From a virus, in the IMG/VR virus record IMGVR_UViG_3300045988_028252, positions 1 to 6,203 of that record: 6,203 nt of DNA. One strand, written 5' to 3'. The notes below the pieces were generated by a model that searched no databases, was not told where the DNA came from, and was given only the letters and a program-made list of their open reading frames with translations. The translations under genes and the position numbers were made by a program. Positions 1 through 6,203 of the stretch are shown here, in pieces; positions within the stretch are counted from its first letter, which is position 1; the number at the start of each line of letters is the position of its first letter.

Positions 1-55
1 GAAAGGCACAGCGATATTGCTGGGCATATTTTTTAATAACATTTTCTCGTTTTTG
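1..55. repeat. Terminal direct repeat (exact copy at 6149-6203) indicating a circular genome assembled with 55-bp redundancy; unit genome length 6148 nt
   Basis: Bases 1-55 (gaaaggcacagcgatattgctgggcatattttttaataacattttctcgtttttg) reappear exactly at 6149-6203, read directly from the sequence. Confidence 0.95.
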
Positions 56-81
56 TAATTTAGATAGTTTATTATCAACAT
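1..81 (-). CDS. N-terminal 27 codons of a 46-aa hypothetical protein (MLIINYLNYKNEKMLLKNMPSNIAVPFYLLNSQRANVKIIITKKSF) whose ORF wraps across the circular junction and continues at 6148..6089
   Basis: ATG at 81..79 is preceded by a perfect AAGGAGG Shine-Dalgarno (complement of 86-93) at 5-nt spacing. The frame runs in phase off position 1 into 6148 and stops with TAA at 6091..6089, which is followed by TT-ATG of the next ORF. Confidence 0.5.
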   Translation of the reverse strand, partial: MLIINYLNYKNEKMLLKNMPSNIAVPF

Positions 82-100
82 ATTTACCTCCTTGTTTTTT

Positions 101-106
101 ATTATA
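101..106 (-). promoter_or_regulatory. Candidate -10 box (TATAAT on the minus strand) about 20 nt upstream of the first-gene ATG, with the AAGGAGG RBS at 86-93; putative main promoter of the polycistronic array
   Basis: The minus-strand sequence reads ...tatatttgtagTATAATaaaaaacAAGGAGGtaaatATG. No clear -35 hexamer is present (A-run at the -35 position). Confidence 0.35.
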
Positions 107-130
107 CTACAAATATACTCATTTTTTTTG

Positions 131-142
131 ATTCTGCAGAAT
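131..142. repeat. Perfect 12-bp palindrome attctgcagaat (contains a PstI site), flanked by a T8/A8 run; candidate operator or protein-binding site upstream of the putative promoter
   Basis: The sequence is its own reverse complement and lies about 25-36 nt upstream of the TATAAT box on the coding strand. Confidence 0.4.
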
Positions 143-194
143 TTTCTGTTATTTATCTGAAGTATTTAACTTTAATTAGCAATAGTATCTTTAA

Positions 195-400
195 GCCTCC
201 GTGGCGTTTGAGCGGTGATGGAGCAATAGAGGGCGCATAGCCCTCCTTAACGTCTAGTACCTTAGTATCGGCGGAGCCGCACACCACGACCGTAGGTCGG
301 GTGCCCGTCATTCCTTATCCCGGTTTTAAGGTAGCCGCCTTTTGGTTGAAGCCGTACCTCACCCTCCCGTTATACACTCTTATCTAATCGGATGCGTAGT
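195..400. other. GC-rich (about 55-60% GC against about 35% genome-wide) hairpin-dense non-coding island immediately downstream of the rep stop; candidate replication origin or complementary-strand initiation (ssi/primosome) structure or packaging signal
   Basis: Composition was counted over 241-360. Hairpins: 229-245 (gagggc/gcata/gccctc); 282-303 (cacc-a-cgacc/gta/ggtcg-ggtg, 9 bp with one bulge); 313-331 (cctta/9-nt loop/taagg); 329-359 (aggta...tacct). The direct repeat agccgc occurs twice. No convincing ORF and no tRNA-like fold. Confidence 0.45.
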
Positions 401-1441
401 TTATGTGTAAGAATGGTTGTTATAATATAGATTGGTGAATAAATCTATATCGTTACTGAATTGGTTTTCGCTTTTTTTCTCTTTTTTCTTTAGCTTCTCG
501 GCAACTATAGTTGCTTTAGTTTCCTTCCATTGACGTTGTTTTTTAAGTCTGTTGAGATATTTTCTTTTATCCCAATCTTTTGGATTGTCGTAATATAGTC
601 TTTCGCATCGTTCTCGCTCGCTTACGAGTACTCCCATATATCTTGATTCTTCCGTTTTTAGGTTTATTTTAATGCCTAGTACGTATACAATTCCTTTTTC
701 GATTTTATCTAGGAATAGTTTTTCACGTTCTTCTTCTGTAAATATTTTGTTTCTGTAATAAATTGGTAGATTAAGTTTTCCACCGTTTCTCATTCGGTAT
801 GATTCGTTTGTTTCGCCTTGTTTGTATACATGCTTTTTGGCATCCTCTCGCTTGAGGTATCCTGCCCCTATTCCTGCCGAGCATAATACTTTCCCTCTGA
901 ATTTTGGATGTTTTTCGTCGATTTTTAGCATGTATTTTGTGATGTATCTGATTGTTTTTTCATTTACAAAATATCCGGTGAATGTGATTCCGTATTTCCA
1001 CTTGTCTATTATTTTCTTGTCATTTCCCAAGCCCCATACTATCCCGTGAAGGTGTAATCTTTCCGTTTTCTCGTGTCCGAGTTCTGTAATAAACCAATGC
1101 TTTACGGATTTTCCGGTTAATTTCCGTACTCTCTCTAGGCATAATCTTATGGCTTTTGTTGCGATGTCGTTATTATCTTTTAATTTGTATTTTTTACTTA
1201 TTTGCTTGTATGATTTATCATCGATTGTCAGTGTTAGGAAATAGGCGTTTGGTGTTTGCCTGTTTTCCTCTGACATTCTTACTATCCATTGCCTTTGTTT
1301 TTGTTTTCTACACTCGTAACAGTCCCCGCATGCTGCTGTTACATAGCGTAGTCTTTCGTCAGGACAAATGGGCGGTATTCCGCCATTTTTTTTAGTTGGC
1401 AGATACCGCTTATTTGGTATGAGTTTAGGATATAGGCACAT
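401..1441 (-). CDS. Rolling-circle replication initiation protein (Microviridae VP4/gpA-like, HUH endonuclease superfamily), 346 aa
   Basis: N-terminal CPxxx...CGxCxxC zinc-finger-like motif. RCR motif I FLTLT (residues about 68-72). Motif II HUH as RLHLHGIVWG (residues about 128-137, nt about 1031-1060). Motif III with catalytic tyrosines YITKY (Y166/Y170, nt about 932-946). Layout is typical of microvirus Rep proteins. Confidence 0.9.
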   Translation of the reverse strand: MCLYPKLIPNKRYLPTKKNGGIPPICPDERLRYVTAACGDCYECRKQKQRQWIVRMSEENRQTPNAYFLTLTIDDKSYKQISKKYKLKDNNDIATKAIRLCLERVRKLTGKSVKHWFITELGHEKTERLHLHGIVWGLGNDKKIIDKWKYGITFTGYFVNEKTIRYITKYMLKIDEKHPKFRGKVLCSAGIGAGYLKREDAKKHVYKQGETNESYRMRNGGKLNLPIYYRNKIFTEEEREKLFLDKIEKGIVYVLGIKINLKTEESRYMGVLVSERERCERLYYDNPKDWDKRKYLNRLKKQRQWKETKATIVAEKLKKKEKKSENQFSNDIDLFTNLYYNNHSYT

Positions 1442-1454
1442 AATTATTAAATAC

Positions 1455-2480
1455 TTATTTACCTATTTTTACTCCTTGTGCTGCTCCTGCTCCTTTTAAA
1501 GCTATTTCGAGCAATCCTAGTACAATGTCTTTGACGAGCTTTTGCTCTTCAATATCCAGACCTTTTTTGCCTAGTTCGTATTTGTTTATTACGTCTTGTG
1601 CATAGGCTTCCATTTGTTCTTTTTGGATTTTGAGTGCTTCTCCTTTTTTGATAAGCTCATCCCATCCTTGTAGAATTCGTGCCGGAATTGCTTTTGCTTC
1701 CTCTTCATTGACTTTTCGTTGGCTTCCTTTAAGTAGTATTTCGGACATTAGATTTTGAAGTGTTAGAGCGCTTTCTTTAACCTTGTTTTCGATTGTTCTT
1801 CTTTTGAGGTTGTTATCGAGGTCTAAACCGTCAATTTCCGCTGTTAGTTTGTCAATTCCTTTTTTGAGGCTTTTAACGTTCCATCGTGTTTCTTCGGCTT
1901 TTTCCTTCGTCCAATCTGCGGTATTCCTTTTTAGTTCTTCTTCGGCATCTGCTACTCTGATTTGTCCTAGTATAAGTCCTCGTTTTATTTTTTCGTTTGC
2001 GGTCTGTGCTATCAGGTTGTCAATGGTAGCTTTTTGTACTTCTGAATCTACGCCTTTGATTTTATTTGCTTCGGCTTCGTTTTTGTTAGCTTGGCTTTCA
2101 TTCAGTTTTATTTGGCTTAGTGCGTTTGCCATTTCTATTCCGATTTCCTGTGCTCTTAGACCCATTCCTACCGATTGGTCTTGAGGCAGTCCTACTCCGC
2201 TTGCTGTTCCTGCTCCTTGTGTCGAGCCTCCTTGTCCTCCCATTCCATAAATTAGCCCTGGACTTAGTCCTGCTTCTTTTATGTGTTTCATTTGGTTTTC
2301 AAAGTTGGTATAATTCCACATTTCCTTTGCTTGCATTGTATTGAATTTGGCATTTTTCCTATTCAATTCTGCTTGTATTTCCATTAGTTCGTGTTGTCTC
2401 TGCCAACTTTGGTTACTTGCACTATTTGCATTGAGTGCTCCCATTAGAGCTCCTCCTATTCCCATTATTGCTCCTATCAT
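1455..2480 (-). CDS. DNA pilot / minor capsid protein (Microviridae VP2 / phiX H-like), 341 aa
   Basis: Gly/Ala-rich hydrophobic N-terminus (MIGAIMGIGGALMGALNANSASN), then a conserved AGLSPGLIYG-type motif with a second Gly-rich stretch (GMGGQGGSTQGAGTASG), then a long Lys/Glu-rich predicted coiled-coil C-terminal half. Position is between capsid and rep, as in other microviruses. Confidence 0.75.
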   Translation of the reverse strand: MIGAIMGIGGALMGALNANSASNQSWQRQHELMEIQAELNRKNAKFNTMQAKEMWNYTNFENQMKHIKEAGLSPGLIYGMGGQGGSTQGAGTASGVGLPQDQSVGMGLRAQEIGIEMANALSQIKLNESQANKNEAEANKIKGVDSEVQKATIDNLIAQTANEKIKRGLILGQIRVADAEEELKRNTADWTKEKAEETRWNVKSLKKGIDKLTAEIDGLDLDNNLKRRTIENKVKESALTLQNLMSEILLKGSQRKVNEEEAKAIPARILQGWDELIKKGEALKIQKEQMEAYAQDVINKYELGKKGLDIEEQKLVKDIVLGLLEIALKGAGAAQGVKIGK

Positions 2481-2497
2481 AATTATTTACATTTTCG

Positions 2498-2517
2498 CGC
2501 TTTGATGTTTCAAAGCG
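2498..2517. promoter_or_regulatory. 8-bp stem / 4-nt loop hairpin (cgctttga-tgtt-tcaaagcg) about 20 nt upstream of the VP2 start, inside the 161-nt intergenic region 2481-2641; regulatory or structural element
   Basis: The arms 2498-2505 and 2510-2517 are perfectly complementary. No U-tract follows on the coding strand, so this is not a canonical intrinsic terminator. Two further hairpins lie in the same IGR (2568-2585 tccgg/8-nt loop/ccgga; 2618-2637 tttgaaaa/tacc/ttttcaaa, directly after the upstream gene's stop). Confidence 0.4.
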
Positions 2518-2641
2518 ATATTCTTATTACTTGATATTAAATTGTAGGTGCGTACTTTCGTGTATTATCCGGTAATTAAACCGGACAATACTCCGAAGTG
2601 CTTGTTACCTACAAGGCTTTGAAAATACCTTTTCAAACAGT

Positions 2642-2959
2642 TTAATTTTCACTTGGTGACCCTCCATCTGCTTTATTAGGCACGTCTCCGAAATCTCCTG
2701 GCTTAGGCGCTATTTCTTTTTTCGCTATATTTCTTGTCATTTTGTCGTAGGCATCCATTGCAATATCGAACCTATCCGTACGGATGTTGTATGCTGGCAA
2801 TACTCCATCTTCTTTTGCTGTGTAAATTATTGGTGCGGTGTCTGTGATTGGTTCACCGTTTTCCAGCACTCTTGCGCATTTTGTTTCAATGCTTTCACCT
2901 TCATATATTTCTACGGAGTCTAATCTTCCGTTGTTTTTTGTTGGATTTGAATACTTCAT
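2642..2959 (-). CDS. Hypothetical acidic protein, 105 aa from ATG at 2959 (the ORF track's 118-aa version uses an upstream GTG at 2998 that overlaps the capsid gene by 26 nt); located between major capsid and pilot genes, a possible scaffolding or minor structural protein
   Basis: Continuous ORF in the gene array, 13 nt after the VP1 stop. D/E/G/P-rich composition. No recognisable motif. Confidence 0.5.
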   Translation of the reverse strand: MKYSNPTKNNGRLDSVEIYEGESIETKCARVLENGEPITDTAPIIYTAKEDGVLPAYNIRTDRFDIAMDAYDKMTRNIAKKEIAPKPGDFGDVPNKADGGSPSEN

Positions 2960-2972
2960 GATGTTATAATTT

Positions 2973-4904
2973 TTATAGATTAGGAATTTGTTTTGCACTG
3001 ATTAGGCGTCTCACTTTGATGTCAAATTTTGTTTGTACCCAAAAATTCATAGCGTCTAGATTTGTGTCTGCAAAGATGTAATTGAATTTTACTGGGTCAA
3101 TATAAGTTGTTAAATCTTCTATCTGTCCGTTTGTTGCCATTGAGTAATTGCGGTTAAGTACCATGAAACTTTCTGGCATTCCTGGCGCGAAGTTTCCGAA
3201 TGTTCTGTTTACATTTGTCATGTAATTTATCCATGCCACAGTCTTTCCCGCTGCTGTTCTTGCGAGTAATGGTCCGTCTGATAGGTAATCTGTCCACCAT
3301 GCCCTTTCTCCGTTTAATGAATCTTGGTATCCGATTCCGTCAAGTGCTGGTTTGTGCCAATCGTTCATGGTTTTTAGGTAACTATCCCATGTGTTCCCCT
3401 GTCCGTAGTCGATACGTGGCGTGATTGAGCATATACACATTATGTAGCATGGTTCCGTTACCTTGATTCGAATGTGTCCGCCTTTTTGTCTTCCTGTTGT
3501 TACGCCTCTTCCGGCTAGCGTTCCTAATGGTTCGTCCTGGCTTGCGCTGTTGCTTATTACTTCTTGAAATACGATTTCTTGGCTTACACCCCCTTCAAAC
3601 ATTGGCGTTTCGCATCTTTCCATATAATTCCCGCCTGTATATACTGTTTCTAGCCAATCTCTGTAAGTTCCTCCGCTTACTGCGATTCTGTTTAGGAAAT
3701 TATATACTTTTTGTGCTAGATTCAGTGCGTCCATGGATAGTATGCCGTCTGCCACATCTACTGCACTTGCTTCGTTAATTCCGTTCACTCCTTCTATCCA
3801 TTCGGTGTTTATCCAATTTTGATATAAGTCGCTATTGTATGTTTTTAGACATAGTCCGTATTGTGGGCTATTTGTTGTTAGATTCTTCTCTCTTGTTCTT
3901 TCTGCAAAGTTTATAAATGGCCTTACACTCATTTTTGAATTTGCTAAGTCAAATACGGTATCTCCAGGAGTCATTAATATATTATCCCTGATTGTGTCTA
4001 GATTTTCCAACGGGAATTTTTCTAGTGATGTTCTTTTTGTTGAATATATCGCTGTTACATACCATGTTTGCCCTGCCGGTATTTTGGTTATTGCAATTTT
4101 TACTTCGTCTGTTTGTACACTGAAATTTCCTATTTTTGATGGAGTTAACACTTGTTCTCTTGCGTTTTGTGATGTTTTAACTCTCAGCATTAGTTCTTTT
4201 TCGGTTATTGTAGCCGGAGTTATTGTGATTGTTTTTCCGCTTGTTATTTCTCCTAGAATTTGCGGTATGTTGTCAGCGTTTGGAATTGGATTACTATTTA
4301 TTGTTGCGGTTATTTTTGGAGATGTTCCAATCATATAAAAGTTTTCTTCCTGTGTGTTTGCGTAGTAATTTTTAAATATATCAAAATATGATAGTATAGG
4401 TAACGCATTTTTGCTTACTGACTTTTCGCCACTTTTTGGCGTGTTCGCGTATCCTCTGATCCCTAGGTATGCTAGTAGGCAACTTGGATTTACTTGTATC
4501 CATTGTTTTTCTTCGTTTGACGGTGTGTCTGTTAATGTTTTTATGTTTACACTTATTTGAGGTAATTTTACTTGCTCCATGTTTAGCCCAATTTTTGTCC
4601 GGTTATTGTGTAACCAACTGTTGTACAGCCTTACCGGGCAAGTATACATGTGATGTTCTAGTTTGAATGAGCCAAATAGAGGTCCCGTTGTTGGATGTGT
4701 GAGTGCATTTGAATCTACGTCAATATCGAATGTATCCCCTTTTTGTCCTACTAGGCACAGGTTTGGAACTAGTGTTCCTGGGCTTTGTGTGTTTCTTACA
4801 ATTGTTGATAAGTCGTGTGTTGACATGTTGTAGTCATGTAGACTAACTGACATTTTGTTATTGTCTCCTATGGTATTTTTACCAATGTTTTTTTCTATTG
4901 CCAT
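2973..4904 (-). CDS. Major capsid protein (Microviridae VP1 / phiX F-like jelly-roll MCP), 643 aa
   Basis: The N-terminal region matches the conserved microvirus MCP signature (G-LVP-------GDTF----------T-P--G-LFGSF----H-Y-CPVRLY--W). Size is typical of gokusho- and alpavirus-like MCPs. A strong SD AAGGAGGA lies 8 nt upstream of the ATG, embedded in the 3' end of the preceding ORF. Confidence 0.9.
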   Translation of the reverse strand: MAIEKNIGKNTIGDNNKMSVSLHDYNMSTHDLSTIVRNTQSPGTLVPNLCLVGQKGDTFDIDVDSNALTHPTTGPLFGSFKLEHHMYTCPVRLYNSWLHNNRTKIGLNMEQVKLPQISVNIKTLTDTPSNEEKQWIQVNPSCLLAYLGIRGYANTPKSGEKSVSKNALPILSYFDIFKNYYANTQEENFYMIGTSPKITATINSNPIPNADNIPQILGEITSGKTITITPATITEKELMLRVKTSQNAREQVLTPSKIGNFSVQTDEVKIAITKIPAGQTWYVTAIYSTKRTSLEKFPLENLDTIRDNILMTPGDTVFDLANSKMSVRPFINFAERTREKNLTTNSPQYGLCLKTYNSDLYQNWINTEWIEGVNGINEASAVDVADGILSMDALNLAQKVYNFLNRIAVSGGTYRDWLETVYTGGNYMERCETPMFEGGVSQEIVFQEVISNSASQDEPLGTLAGRGVTTGRQKGGHIRIKVTEPCYIMCICSITPRIDYGQGNTWDSYLKTMNDWHKPALDGIGYQDSLNGERAWWTDYLSDGPLLARTAAGKTVAWINYMTNVNRTFGNFAPGMPESFMVLNRNYSMATNGQIEDLTTYIDPVKFNYIFADTNLDAMNFWVQTKFDIKVRRLISAKQIPNL

Positions 4905-4907
4905 GGT

Positions 4908-5189
4908 TTAGTCCTCCTTTTTTTTAGTATCGTTAACAATTCCTTTTGCGACTTTTTTCCCGGTACGTTTGAGTTTTTTTTCGTATTCGTCTGCCTCTTT
5001 ACATGCATATATCATTGCTGCAACTAGATTCCAATCTACGGAGTTGATTTTTTCTTCTGCTGCTTCACGTGTTGGAAATTTTTCAGTTGTTGCTAAATGG
5101 TTTCCAATTACAATCATGTATTCTTTTTCTTCTTGTGTTGTTGGTAATACTTTGAATACATCTTTCATGTCGTTAAATTCTTTTTCCAT
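4908..5189 (-). CDS. Hypothetical 93-aa protein with acidic N-terminal body and strongly basic C-terminal tail (KKLKRTGKKVAKGIVNDTKKKED); possible DNA-binding / packaging (J/VP8-like) or scaffold protein
   Basis: ORF immediately upstream of the MCP gene (3-nt gap), coupled to the upstream gene by a TAA-AA-ATG junction. The functional assignment is by position and charge pattern only. Confidence 0.55.
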   Translation of the reverse strand: MEKEFNDMKDVFKVLPTTQEEKEYMIVIGNHLATTEKFPTREAAEEKINSVDWNLVAAMIYACKEADEYEKKLKRTGKKVAKGIVNDTKKKED

Positions 5190-5191
5190 TT

Positions 5192-5398
5192 TTAATAGTT
5201 TTTAGGATTAATATTAATTTTTGTACTATCAACGCTTGACGTTGTCGTTTGGTCGGTCTTTTGCGTTGAGTTTTGATTGTTTTTGCTGACGCTTAAACTC
5301 ATTGTGCAACTTTGCACACAAAGCGTAGTAATGATTGCAATTATTGCGGTCGAAATAGCTCGGATAATTTCTACCCATTGCGTCCCGTTGATTTTCAT
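5192..5398 (-). CDS. Hypothetical 68-aa single-pass membrane protein (TM segment WVEIIRAISTAIIAIITTLCV, Ser/Thr-rich hydrophilic tail); candidate lysis (amurin-like) or membrane-targeting accessory protein
   Basis: ORF-track ORF. Its ATG overlaps the stop of the upstream 30-aa ORF in an ATGA arrangement, and its own stop is followed by AA-ATG of the next gene. Hydrophobic core is about 21 residues. Confidence 0.5.
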   Translation of the reverse strand: MKINGTQWVEIIRAISTAIIAIITTLCVQSCTMSLSVSKNNQNSTQKTDQTTTSSVDSTKININPKNY

Positions 5399-5487
5399 AA
5401 GTTTCCATTTTTAATGTATAAATAACTTCCGCCTATGAAGGCGATTATTAATAGTAATATTACTATTCCGAATACTTCTCTAGGCAT
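5395..5487 (-). CDS. Hypothetical 30-aa hydrophobic peptide (MPREVFGIVILLLIIAFIGGSYLYIKNGNL), a single predicted TM helix; not in the ORF track because it is shorter than the cutoff
   Basis: ATG at 5487..5485 lies 2 nt after the TAA of the upstream 84-aa ORF (taaACatg). Its TGA stop at 5397..5395 overlaps the ATG of the downstream 68-aa ORF (ATGA). It fills what would otherwise be the only gap in the small-gene block. Confidence 0.45.
   Translation of the reverse strand: MPREVFGIVILLLIIAFIGGSYLYIKNGNL
5450..5467. repeat. Perfect 18-bp AT-rich palindrome aatagtaatattactatt, embedded in the 30-aa TM-peptide ORF
   Basis: The sequence equals its own reverse complement (9+9, no spacer). An adjacent 5-bp-stem hairpin cgcct-atga-aggcg lies at 5430-5443. 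Confidence 0.6.
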
Positions 5488-5489
5488 GT

Positions 5490-5744
5490 TTAAAATAATT
5501 TAAGTTGTTTTTGATTCCATTTTTCTAAATCTTCGTTGTCTTTGTCATAAGTTTTTTCACATATTAACCTCCTTTCTTGTTTTGTGAAGATGTATTTTTT
5601 TGTAATAACATCTTCTTCTAGTTCATAACATATTTTTTTCATTTTTATTGATGTGTGAAAGTACACATAGTTTTTTAACTCCTGAAATGTATTGAAAATA
5701 TGTCCGTCTGCTTCATAATTTCTAATCTTTTTCGGTTTTTTCAT
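5490..5744 (-). CDS. Hypothetical 84-aa protein (K/E-rich, basic N-terminus MKKPKKIRN)
   Basis: ORF-track ORF within the co-oriented gene array. Its start overlaps the 3' end of the upstream 67-aa ORF by 23 nt. No SD. Confidence 0.5.
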   Translation of the reverse strand: MKKPKKIRNYEADGHIFNTFQELKNYVYFHTSIKMKKICYELEEDVITKKYIFTKQERRLICEKTYDKDNEDLEKWNQKQLKLF

Positions 5745-5925
5745 TTTCGTTAGGATATAATTTCCATGATTCTACTACTGCTATTATACGCTCGTTTTTT
5801 GGTACGACTGCTTTTGCAATTGTTACTGCTATTTTGTATGTACATTCTGTTGGTATTTCTTTTACCATTACATGAGACGTAGGATTGTCTCCCGTTGTGA
5901 TTACTGAAAATTTTGTTGCTGCCAT
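5722..5925 (-). CDS. Hypothetical 67-aa protein
   Basis: ORF-track ORF. Its ATG lies 2 nt after the stop of the upstream 52-aa ORF (taaTTatgg junction). Confidence 0.45.
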   Translation of the reverse strand: MAATKFSVITTGDNPTSHVMVKEIPTECTYKIAVTIAKAVVPKNERIIAVVESWKLYPNENEKTEKD

Positions 5926-5927
5926 AA

Positions 5928-6086
5928 TTATCTGTTTTTTATATTTTTAGTTTTCTGTATTTCTTCAATTATTAATACTATTGTAGTAATTAGCGCTTCT
6001 TTTTCTTTTTTGGAGCATTTTAATTGTCTTTCTGATTTGAATTTCCAGAGCGCTTGTTCTAATCTCATTAGTTCTTCTGATTCCAT
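5928..6086 (-). CDS. Hypothetical 52-aa protein (MESEELMRLEQALWKFKSERQLKCSKKEKEALITTIVLIIEEIQKTKNIKNR), below the ORF-track cutoff
   Basis: ATG at 6086..6084 lies 2 nt after the TAA of the junction-spanning 46-aa ORF. Its own TAA at 5930..5928 is followed by TT-ATG of the 67-aa ORF. The identical taattatgg junction occurs at both ends. Confidence 0.45.
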   Translation of the reverse strand: MESEELMRLEQALWKFKSERQLKCSKKEKEALITTIVLIIEEIQKTKNIKNR

Positions 6087-6088
6087 AA

Positions 6089-6148
6089 TTAAAAAGATTT
6101 TTTAGTTATTATTATTTTTACATTAGCTCTTTGTGAATTTAATAAGTA
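6089..6148 (-). CDS. C-terminal 19 codons plus stop of the junction-spanning 46-aa hypothetical protein (continuation of feature 1..81)
   Basis: In-frame continuation across the circular junction. The stop TAA is at 6091..6089, immediately followed by TT then the ATG of the next ORF (the taattatgg junction motif). Confidence 0.5.
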   Translation of the reverse strand, partial: YLLNSQRANVKIIITKKSF

Positions 6149-6203
6149 GAAAGGCACAGCGATATTGCTGGGCATATTTTTTAATAACATTTTCTCGTTT
6201 TTG

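Follow-up and report, generated by a model that had tools for sequence, protein, structure and literature searches.

Among the closest described counterparts of the genome considered here is the proposed microvirus subfamily Alpavirinae ('Family 5' of Kirchberger et al. 2022), known from the BMV proviruses of Bacteroides and Prevotella, abundant in the human gut and characterized by genomes of about 6 kb with the gene order VP1-VP2-VP4 and by Bacteroidales hosts (PMC3091885, PMC3394797, PMC9239249). Alpavirinae genomes are longer than gokushovirus genomes (PMC3394797, PMC9239249), that of BMV1 being 6.3 kb (PMC3091885), and integration at dif-like sites has been proposed for the Bacteroidetes proviruses that define the group (PMC3091885). 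The order VP1-VP2-VP4 is near-universal in the family and occurs in all groups but Pichovirinae (PMC3394797, PMC9239249). We analyzed IMG/VR record IMGVR_UViG_3300045988_028252, a stretch of 6,203 nt referred to below as the window, and give all positions relative to it unless another sequence is named. With a probability of about 0.9, the window represents one whole genome of 6148 nt, closed into a circle, from an uncultivated gut microvirus of an Alpavirinae-like lineage whose relatives infect Bacteroidales and sometimes lysogenise them.

The window is a closed microvirus genome

Positions 1-55 are exactly identical to positions 6149-6203, and 55 nt is the longest prefix that equals a suffix, which gives a true unit of 6148 nt (1-6148). 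An exact 55-mer at both ends cannot have arisen by chance. A k-mer size of 55 is standard in assemblers, and the terminal overlaps found in IMG/VR relatives (55, 77, 99, 121, 127, and 141 nt; 88 related contigs) are likewise k-mer sizes, which backs an assembly origin for both copies. An independent ENA contig (ERZ27272220:k119_31675, 6144 nt; L009) is 99.98% identical to the window and carries the exact major capsid protein (MCP). It is linearised inside the open reading frame (ORF) of 105 aa between the MCP and pilot genes, accounts for 6144 of the 6148 nt, and runs in one uninterrupted alignment over the window's end junction, which it passes once, without the duplicated 55-mer. In addition, the related IMG/VR contigs include a head-to-tail dimer of 12.1 kb. 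The preliminary description of this DNA had proposed closure through the 55-bp overlap, and both the alignment of the ends and the contig that crosses the junction bear this out.

All long ORFs lie on the minus strand, in agreement with the preliminary map. Naming the small proteins by their length, the order of transcription is p46 (uncertain), p52, p67, p84, p30 (uncertain), p68, p93, MCP, p105, pilot and Rep, followed by about 460 nt of noncoding sequence. The MCP (VP1/F family, 643 aa; 2973-4904, minus strand) matches phrog_514 (2e-41) and scores 23.8 bits against Pfam Phage_F (PF02305), slightly below the 25-bit cut-off. Its sole PDB relative by sequence is the MCP of gokushovirus EC6098 (8DES, 5e-13), and its profile reaches 759 and 628 bits with the MCPs of two Bacteroidales proviruses, compared with 43 for Chp2 VP1 and -3 for phiX F. 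The DNA pilot protein (VP2/H-like, 341 aa; 1455-2480, minus strand) matches phrog_8689 (2e-10) and reaches 18 bits with Chp2 VP2.

The third core gene encodes an HUH rolling-circle replication initiator, Rep (VP4/A-like, 346 aa; 401-1441, minus strand), which matches phrog_942 (3e-26) and PF23343 (41 bits). It contains motif I (FLTLT), the HUH motif (HLHGI), and a motif III with two tyrosines (Y166-ITK-Y170, followed by K173), as well as an N-terminal Cys4 arrangement (C2, C38, C41, C44); the motif residues are invariant across 11 sequences. The Rep profile scores 44 bits on phiMH2K, 43 on Chp2, and 6.6 on phiX A. An F/VP1-type MCP, an HUH Rep with motifs I to III, an H/VP2 pilot protein, and a small circular genome (6148 nt, where about 4-7 kb is expected) with all genes on one strand are features of Microviridae that the window shows. 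Single-stranded, positive-sense virion DNA is a further feature of the family; for the window, composition and the orientation of an origin-like motif raise doubt about polarity, as set out below. PHROG and Pfam confirm the MCP, pilot, and Rep assignments from which a complete Microviridae genome had been proposed.

An Alpavirinae-like lineage associated with Bacteroidales

The exact MCP sequence is present in the protein database, together with at least 120 clusters of MCPs that are 84% or more identical to it and come almost entirely from public metagenome contigs of about 6 kb. The nearest GenBank record is PV067927.1 (Microviridae sp. isolate DZY20_k141_25887; human gut, China; 6082 nt), with 81% nucleotide identity over 87% of the genome and protein identities of 78% (MCP), 89% (Rep), 70% (pilot), and 85% (p105). 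It shares with the window the gene order and the R1 element and promoter discussed below, but it is distinct at species level, the promoter-to-p67 region is not conserved, and the record annotates only three genes.

Proviruses were sought with an MCP alignment and degenerate MCP patterns against one genome per prokaryotic species, which gave eight loci, two of them within long bacterial contigs. In the isolate Dysgonomonas sp. 521 (NZ_QVMO01000010.1; L014), a 6002-nt provirus unit with MCP-p105-pilot-Rep is flanked by MeaB/ROK on one side and Usp/TPR/GyrA genes on the other. It is bounded by imperfect dif-like direct repeats, AACATAATAGTAATTATGTAACA and AACTTAATAGTAATTATATAACA, at 2665-2687 and 8667-8689 of locus L014, 6002 nt apart, and contains neither an integrase nor the R1 island. 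To the best of our knowledge, this provirus was previously undescribed. A second provirus lies on a 104-kb Paludibacteraceae contig. The degenerate patterns recovered the Dysgonomonas and Paludibacteraceae proviruses and not the original BMVs. For Dulem viruses 218 and 214, whose MCPs are 58% and 50% identical to that of the window, iPHoP predicted Phocaeicola/Bacteroides at 99% (PMC11281440 supplement). The proviruses, these predictions, and a TAnnTTTG promoter box are indirect evidence for a Bacteroidales host of the lineage. Six microvirus-sized contigs (L015, L016, L017, L018, L019, and L020) are binned as Acinetobacter lwoffii, Bathyarchaeum, Faecalimonas, Christensenellales, and Clostridium; these labels most likely reflect contamination or mis-binning and are not host evidence.

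The window resembles Alpavirinae in its size of about 6 kb, its VP1-VP2-VP4 order, its human-gut abundance, and its Bacteroidales association. Only VP1, VP2, and VP4 are recognisable in it, as in the published description of the subfamily (PMC3394797), and its provirus relatives have dif-like flanking repeats without an integrase. It differs in that the BMVs are temperate through a dif-like att site and host XerC/D, which is not required of all members, whereas a search of the window with the bacterial dif consensus and the Dysgonomonas att repeats found no dif/Xer site better than in shuffled sequence. Since neither a dif-like site nor an integrase is present, the window genome is probably not temperate. 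MG883728, a neighbour at 42.5% identity, is the top match of a published Alpavirinae-clade virus (PMC10821283), and NCBI taxonomy has no Alpavirinae node. Membership in Alpavirinae is likely, and the alpavirus-like lineage that had been suggested is supported as Alpavirinae-like and Bacteroidales-associated.

Some points weigh against this overall reading of the window. Its likely subfamily placement is drawn from the Bacteroidales proviruses identified in this analysis and from trees that have been published for neighbours (MG883728), and not from BMV1-7 or the Roux 2012 genomes. The promoter, origin, and lysis assignments given below are ones that we infer from motifs, and which strand is packaged is in doubt.

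Gene order and size are typical of the lineage

The preliminary description had found the gene order unusual and likened it to the J-F-G-H-A arrangement of phiX. The layout, in which the MCP is followed by an ORF of about 105 aa, a gap of about 160 nt, the pilot gene, Rep, a gap of about 300 nt, and four or five small ORFs, is identical in eight of eight GenBank relatives, which come from humans, lemurs, tortoises, marmots, and rodents. In all eight an ORF of about 90 aa precedes the MCP and closes the small-gene block. The core order MCP-p105-pilot-Rep recurs in two Bacteroidales proviruses, in 80 IMG/VR relatives the noncoding elements were confirmed to sit in like positions with respect to Rep, p105, and pilot, and VP1-VP2-VP4 is the standard order, so that the impression of an unusual layout does not hold. 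The statement that the genome exceeds in size those of classical gokushoviruses is correct, and 6148 nt is typical of its own lineage, in which related contigs or units measure about 4.8-6.2 kb and close relatives 5.9-6.2 kb.

Two further proteins are nearly constant parts of this layout. Over 146 related loci, in which the occurrence of all small genes was counted, p105 (105 aa, ATG start; 2642-2959, minus strand, between MCP and pilot) is found in 134 and p93 (93 aa; 4908-5189, minus strand, directly upstream of MCP) in 130. The p105 family comprises at least 6881 clusters in the protein database, of about 100-130 aa and without informative annotation, and p105 has no match in Pfam, PHROG, PDB, or the phiX and gokushovirus reference proteins. 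Likewise p93, which has a basic C-terminus, has no match in Pfam, PHROG, PDB, or the reference microvirus proteins.

Relative to Gokushovirinae (Chp2, phiMH2K, SpV4, EC6098/8DES), the MCP, pilot, and Rep are detectably homologous (43, 18, and 44 bits, respectively; 8DES at 5e-13), and genes for an external scaffold or a spike are missing from both. The window genome is, however, 1.2-1.7 kb larger (6148 nt against 4.4-4.9 kb) and has p105 and p93 instead of VP3/VP5, none of its ORFs matching Chlamy_scaf or VP3/VP5. With phiX174 (Bullavirinae) the window shares the core order F-H-A, intergenic hairpins that flank structural genes, and the two-tyrosine motif of Rep, but the window proteins are without detectable similarity to F, G, J, D, B, and C and without Pfam matches to that group. 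Pichovirinae differ in having the core order VP4-VP2-VP1 (PMC3394797), where the window has VP1-VP2-VP4.

A conserved multi-hairpin element follows Rep

Directly 3' of Rep lies a conserved multi-hairpin element of 199 nt, here called R1 (185-384, minus strand), which is marked by its GC profile (55% GC, against 36% genome-wide) and by covariation. R1 is present in nearly every relative with a Rep identity of at least 52% and can be aligned even at about 50-60% protein identity. RNAalifold predicted a multi-hairpin consensus from a MAFFT alignment of 18 non-redundant copies, with compensatory changes in 15 of 33 pairs. A covariance model detected the element in 41 of the 97 sources, and in each of them it lay on the coding strand, immediately downstream of Rep. 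Across these 41 sequences, 94.6% of cells were paired and 18 of the 33 pairs changed on both sides, compared with 29-54% of cells paired and at most 8 pairs changed on both sides in controls in which the partners were slid by 1-3 columns. A core motif, present a single time in each genome copy, was found in 57 IMG/VR contigs; the majority of these contigs are about 6 kb long, five are fragments of 3.7-5.5 kb, and one is the 12.1-kb dimer.

The conserved pairs of R1 include G-U pairs, among them an invariant tandem, which identifies the coding-sense strand as the one that folds. Support for the closing helix of the multiloop is weak, and a CCTTA/TAAGG hairpin can be seen as an alternative. An Rfam scan of the whole window (E <= 1) found no family for R1 and returned only a chance miRNA match on the long hairpin described below. 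R1 could be a single-strand DNA signal for complementary-strand priming or, just as well, an RNA structure located at the 3' end of the long transcript; the invariant tandem G-U slightly favours an RNA role. A comparable priming proposal exists for hairpins in other microviruses (PMC9865509).

A structured module upstream of the pilot gene and a candidate origin

The intergenic region of 161 nt between p105 and the pilot gene (2481-2641, assigned to neither strand) is also structured. Within it are two hairpins, one long (2542-2614) and one short (2498-2517), with a conserved module lying between the two. Folded as RNA, the gap has an energy of -47.5 kcal/mol (z = -5.7 relative to shuffles), and most relatives have z < -4. 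In coding sense the module reads GGTACGCA..TATATCAAGTA..hairpin..CGAAAA and is present in 75 of 81 relatives. It consists of GGTACGCAYGT, then an AT-rich stretch that includes TATATCAAGTA, then the short hairpin, and then CGAAAA. The stem of this hairpin occurs in variants, CGCTTTGA/TCAAAGCG, AGCTTTT/AAAAGCT, CGATTTT/AAAATCG, and GCCCTTGT/ACAAGGGC, which vary compensatorily as read by eye only; in the RNAalifold consensus fold of the module, where the AT-rich hairpin was misaligned, zero pairs were predicted.

On the strand antisense to the window genes, the sequence ACTTGATATTAA (2529-2540, plus strand) is a candidate Rep nick site. Its 12 nt equal phiX174 nt 4301-4312, the viral-strand origin core CAACTTG/ATATTAATAAC..., G/A nick site included, for which the annotated origin is at 4306. 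Of 81 gaps, 33 have the core CTTGATAT exactly and 60 have it in relaxed or near-exact form. Behind this core come an AT-rich spacer and then the conserved box GCGTAC, an order that matches that of spacer and binding sequence in the phiX origin. The two sites differ in context, as the phiX origin lies inside the Rep gene on the sense strand, whereas the window motif is intergenic and antisense. When the ungapped comparison with the phiX origin was lengthened to a 20-mer, the match was no better than in shuffled genomes except in phiX itself, and Chp2, phiMH2K, and SpV4 gave no significant phiX-origin match. Our tentative first choice for the Rep nick site is this module, whose core ACTTG/ATAT is phiX-like, at a little under even odds.

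Strand composition mirrors that of other microviruses

The preliminary description had taken the coding strand (window minus) for the packaged virion strand, which rests on analogy with the microviruses of determined polarity. This claim is in doubt, given the origin-like motif on the antisense strand together with a mirror-image base composition. A makes up 43% and T 20% of the window's coding strand, a bias seen likewise in all relatives, and the four-fold degenerate sites of the window have 67% A and 10% T. In 88 of 88 relatives A exceeds T at these sites (median 0.65 vs 0.135). The codon bias of phiX174 is the mirror image (61% T, 7% A), and the synonymous-site bias of Chp2 (50% T) and SpV4 (65% T) is opposite to the window's. 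The corresponding values are 42-68% T and 10-20% A in four further gut microviruses, which include a Parabacteroides phage, and 36% T and 28% A in Bacteroidales host genes. The sole A-biased reference is phiMH2K (47% A). The preference of single-stranded DNA phages for NNT has been attributed to C-to-T change on the single strand (PMC3278643); C-to-T change on the complementary strand would produce exactly the NNA bias of the window.

Alternative readings

Two alternatives concern the form of the genome and its architecture. The 55-bp repeat could be a real terminal or duplicated element of a linear or integrated sequence, in which case there would be no evidence for a circle. Besides the repeat itself, such a reading could draw on a related ENA scaffold (ERZ28578743 scaffold_2438, about 4094-4480; L010), in which bacterial genes stand next to a viral unit 85-90% identical to the window. 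The junction of that scaffold lies inside the pilot ORF, where a truncated S4-domain N-terminus is fused in frame to the C-terminal part of the pilot protein, and its viral part amounts to one unit plus about 55 nt. These are signatures of chimeric assembly, and we dropped the scaffold as a prophage candidate because it is probably chimeric. Against a linear or integrated form stand also the independent ENA contig, which has a different break point and spans the junction once without duplication, the agreement of the relatives' overlaps with assembler k-mers, and the head-to-tail dimer, so that this reading is almost certainly wrong. It is also very improbable, if not to quite the same degree, that the window represents a new subfamily with a truly phiX-like architecture, in which p93 would be the DNA-binding protein J and p105 the spike protein G. 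A small protein with a basic C-terminus before the MCP and an ORF of about 100 aa between MCP and pilot are what such an architecture would have, but the likeness does not go beyond position. Profiles of the MCP, Rep, and pilot protein find their matches among gokushovirus proteins (43, 44, and 18 bits) and not in phiX F, A, and H (-3, 6.6, and none), and p93 and p105 gave no profile match to J, G, B, C, D, VP3, or VP5. An AlphaFold2 model of p105 from a 70-sequence alignment has two helices and zero strands (pLDDT 58, pTM 0.25), which suggests, at low confidence, a helical or extended protein unlike the G beta-barrel. Furthermore, the layout is common to thousands of already deposited genomes.

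The third alternative accepts the closed, Alpavirinae-like genome and concerns its polarity. The window plus strand, antisense to the genes, would be the packaged one, and the lineage (all 88 genomes examined) would be negative-sense; Rep would nick the T-rich ACTTG/ATAT sequence of the plus strand, and R1 would be an undescribed structured RNA and not a DNA origin. This would account for an exact 12-nt match to the phiX nick core that lies antisense in a noncoding module kept by 75 of 81 relatives, with the AT-rich spacer and GCGTAC box ordered as in phiX, and for an NNA bias in the window and its 88 relatives where phiX, Chp2, SpV4, and four gut microviruses have a T bias; the invariant tandem G-U pairs of R1 fit RNA as well. 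To our knowledge, however, every microvirus of determined polarity is positive-sense and no negative-sense microvirus has been reported, a literature search on polarity having given nothing relevant. The A bias is shared by phiMH2K, whose polarity is presumed positive, and the outcome of the origin search for the 20-mer and for the three gokushovirus genomes counts against this reading as well. In 35 of 45 cases the hairpins of the gap have a slightly better raw folding energy in the coding sense, a preference that is absent from z-scores normalised for composition, and R1, if it is a DNA element, folds on the coding strand only. We consider a negative-sense lineage possible, with the balance tilted against it.

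Small genes and a putative promoter

Upstream of p93 is a block of small genes on the minus strand. Among these, p68 (5192-5398, minus strand; 99 of 146 loci) is a small predicted lipoprotein that is better conserved than the neighbouring small genes. The alignment of relatives shows a hydrophobic signal peptide that ends in an invariant QSC, with a lipobox-like cysteine, and a highly conserved mature part of about 37 aa with a high content of Ser, Thr, and Asn. At the corresponding place (L014 3511-3936), the Dysgonomonas provirus has an Amidase_2 gene, which encodes a lysis enzyme. A lysis role of p68 is for this reason a reasonable guess, if no more than that, and p68 may be considered a candidate lysis or exclusion factor. 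A 59-aa ORF that overlaps p68 (5229-5408) is conserved in the nearest relative only and was taken as spurious.

The adjacent p30 (30 aa, MPREVFGIVILLLIIAFIGGSYLYIKNGNL; 5395-5487, minus strand) is an uncertain gene found in 5 of 146 loci. It is tightly packed between p84 and p68 with overlapping start and stop codons, is also called by the gene caller of the source, and has a single predicted transmembrane segment. It is possibly a small membrane peptide, perhaps for lysis. Farther upstream are p84 (5490-5744, minus strand; 87 of 146 loci), p67 (5722-5925, minus strand; 73 of 146), p52 (5928-6086, minus strand; 9 of 146), and the uncertain p46 (minus strand; 3 of 146), which wraps around and is cut by the contig ends. 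The stretch from the promoter and Shine-Dalgarno sequence to p67 (1-81, 6089-6148, and 5928-6086, minus strand) is hypervariable; the promoter, GGAGG, and ATG are conserved, and the ORFs that follow, p46 and p52, differ among close relatives. ORFs of 39-40 aa are also open in alternative frames inside Rep (1020-1142, minus strand) and the pilot gene (1589-1708, minus strand), in the closest relatives as well as in the window. Overlapping genes are known in phiX174; here these ORFs are probably a by-product of the conservation of the main frame.

A putative Bacteroidetes-type promoter lies in the large noncoding region (110-140, minus strand), with a -7 box TATATTTG at 110-117 and a -33-like TCTG at 137-140. 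It is followed by a GGAGG Shine-Dalgarno sequence and an ATG at 81. TAnnTTTG, which we take to be the Bacteroidetes -7 promoter element on the basis of a consensus from Bacteroides promoters, has its single occurrence on the window coding strand here. The position of the box is conserved in relatives, which carry TTTG 19 nt upstream. A sigma-70 promoter scan of the window gave fewer matches than in shuffles; the sigma-70 consensus is not applicable to Bacteroidetes.

Implications for the lineage

The features described above suggest how such a genome might be expressed and replicated. The one Bacteroidetes-type promoter in the large noncoding region would drive a transcript through the small genes, MCP, p105, pilot, and Rep. 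Rep would then nick one strand of the double-stranded replicative form and start rolling-circle synthesis of single strands, which would be packaged in T=1 capsids, with the pilot protein delivering the DNA. The flanking hairpins of the pilot-upstream module, R1, or both may serve in complementary-strand priming or form the 3' end of an RNA.

With the window, a lineage of gut microviruses that has already been sampled heavily gains another complete genome, and the impression of an unusual layout is corrected. It is at most a new species-level member of a known and abundant kind of gut microvirus with a normal layout. Beyond the recognised set, the lineage also has two core proteins, p105 and p93. 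Its two conserved noncoding modules appear to be undescribed so far: R1, with strong covariation and no Rfam family, and the pilot-upstream module, as a plausible Rep origin. These conserved noncoding elements and the mirror-image codon bias outweigh the original claim in interest. A negative-sense virion, if true, would overturn a property that textbooks ascribe to the family, at least as far as a major group of phages of the human gut is concerned.

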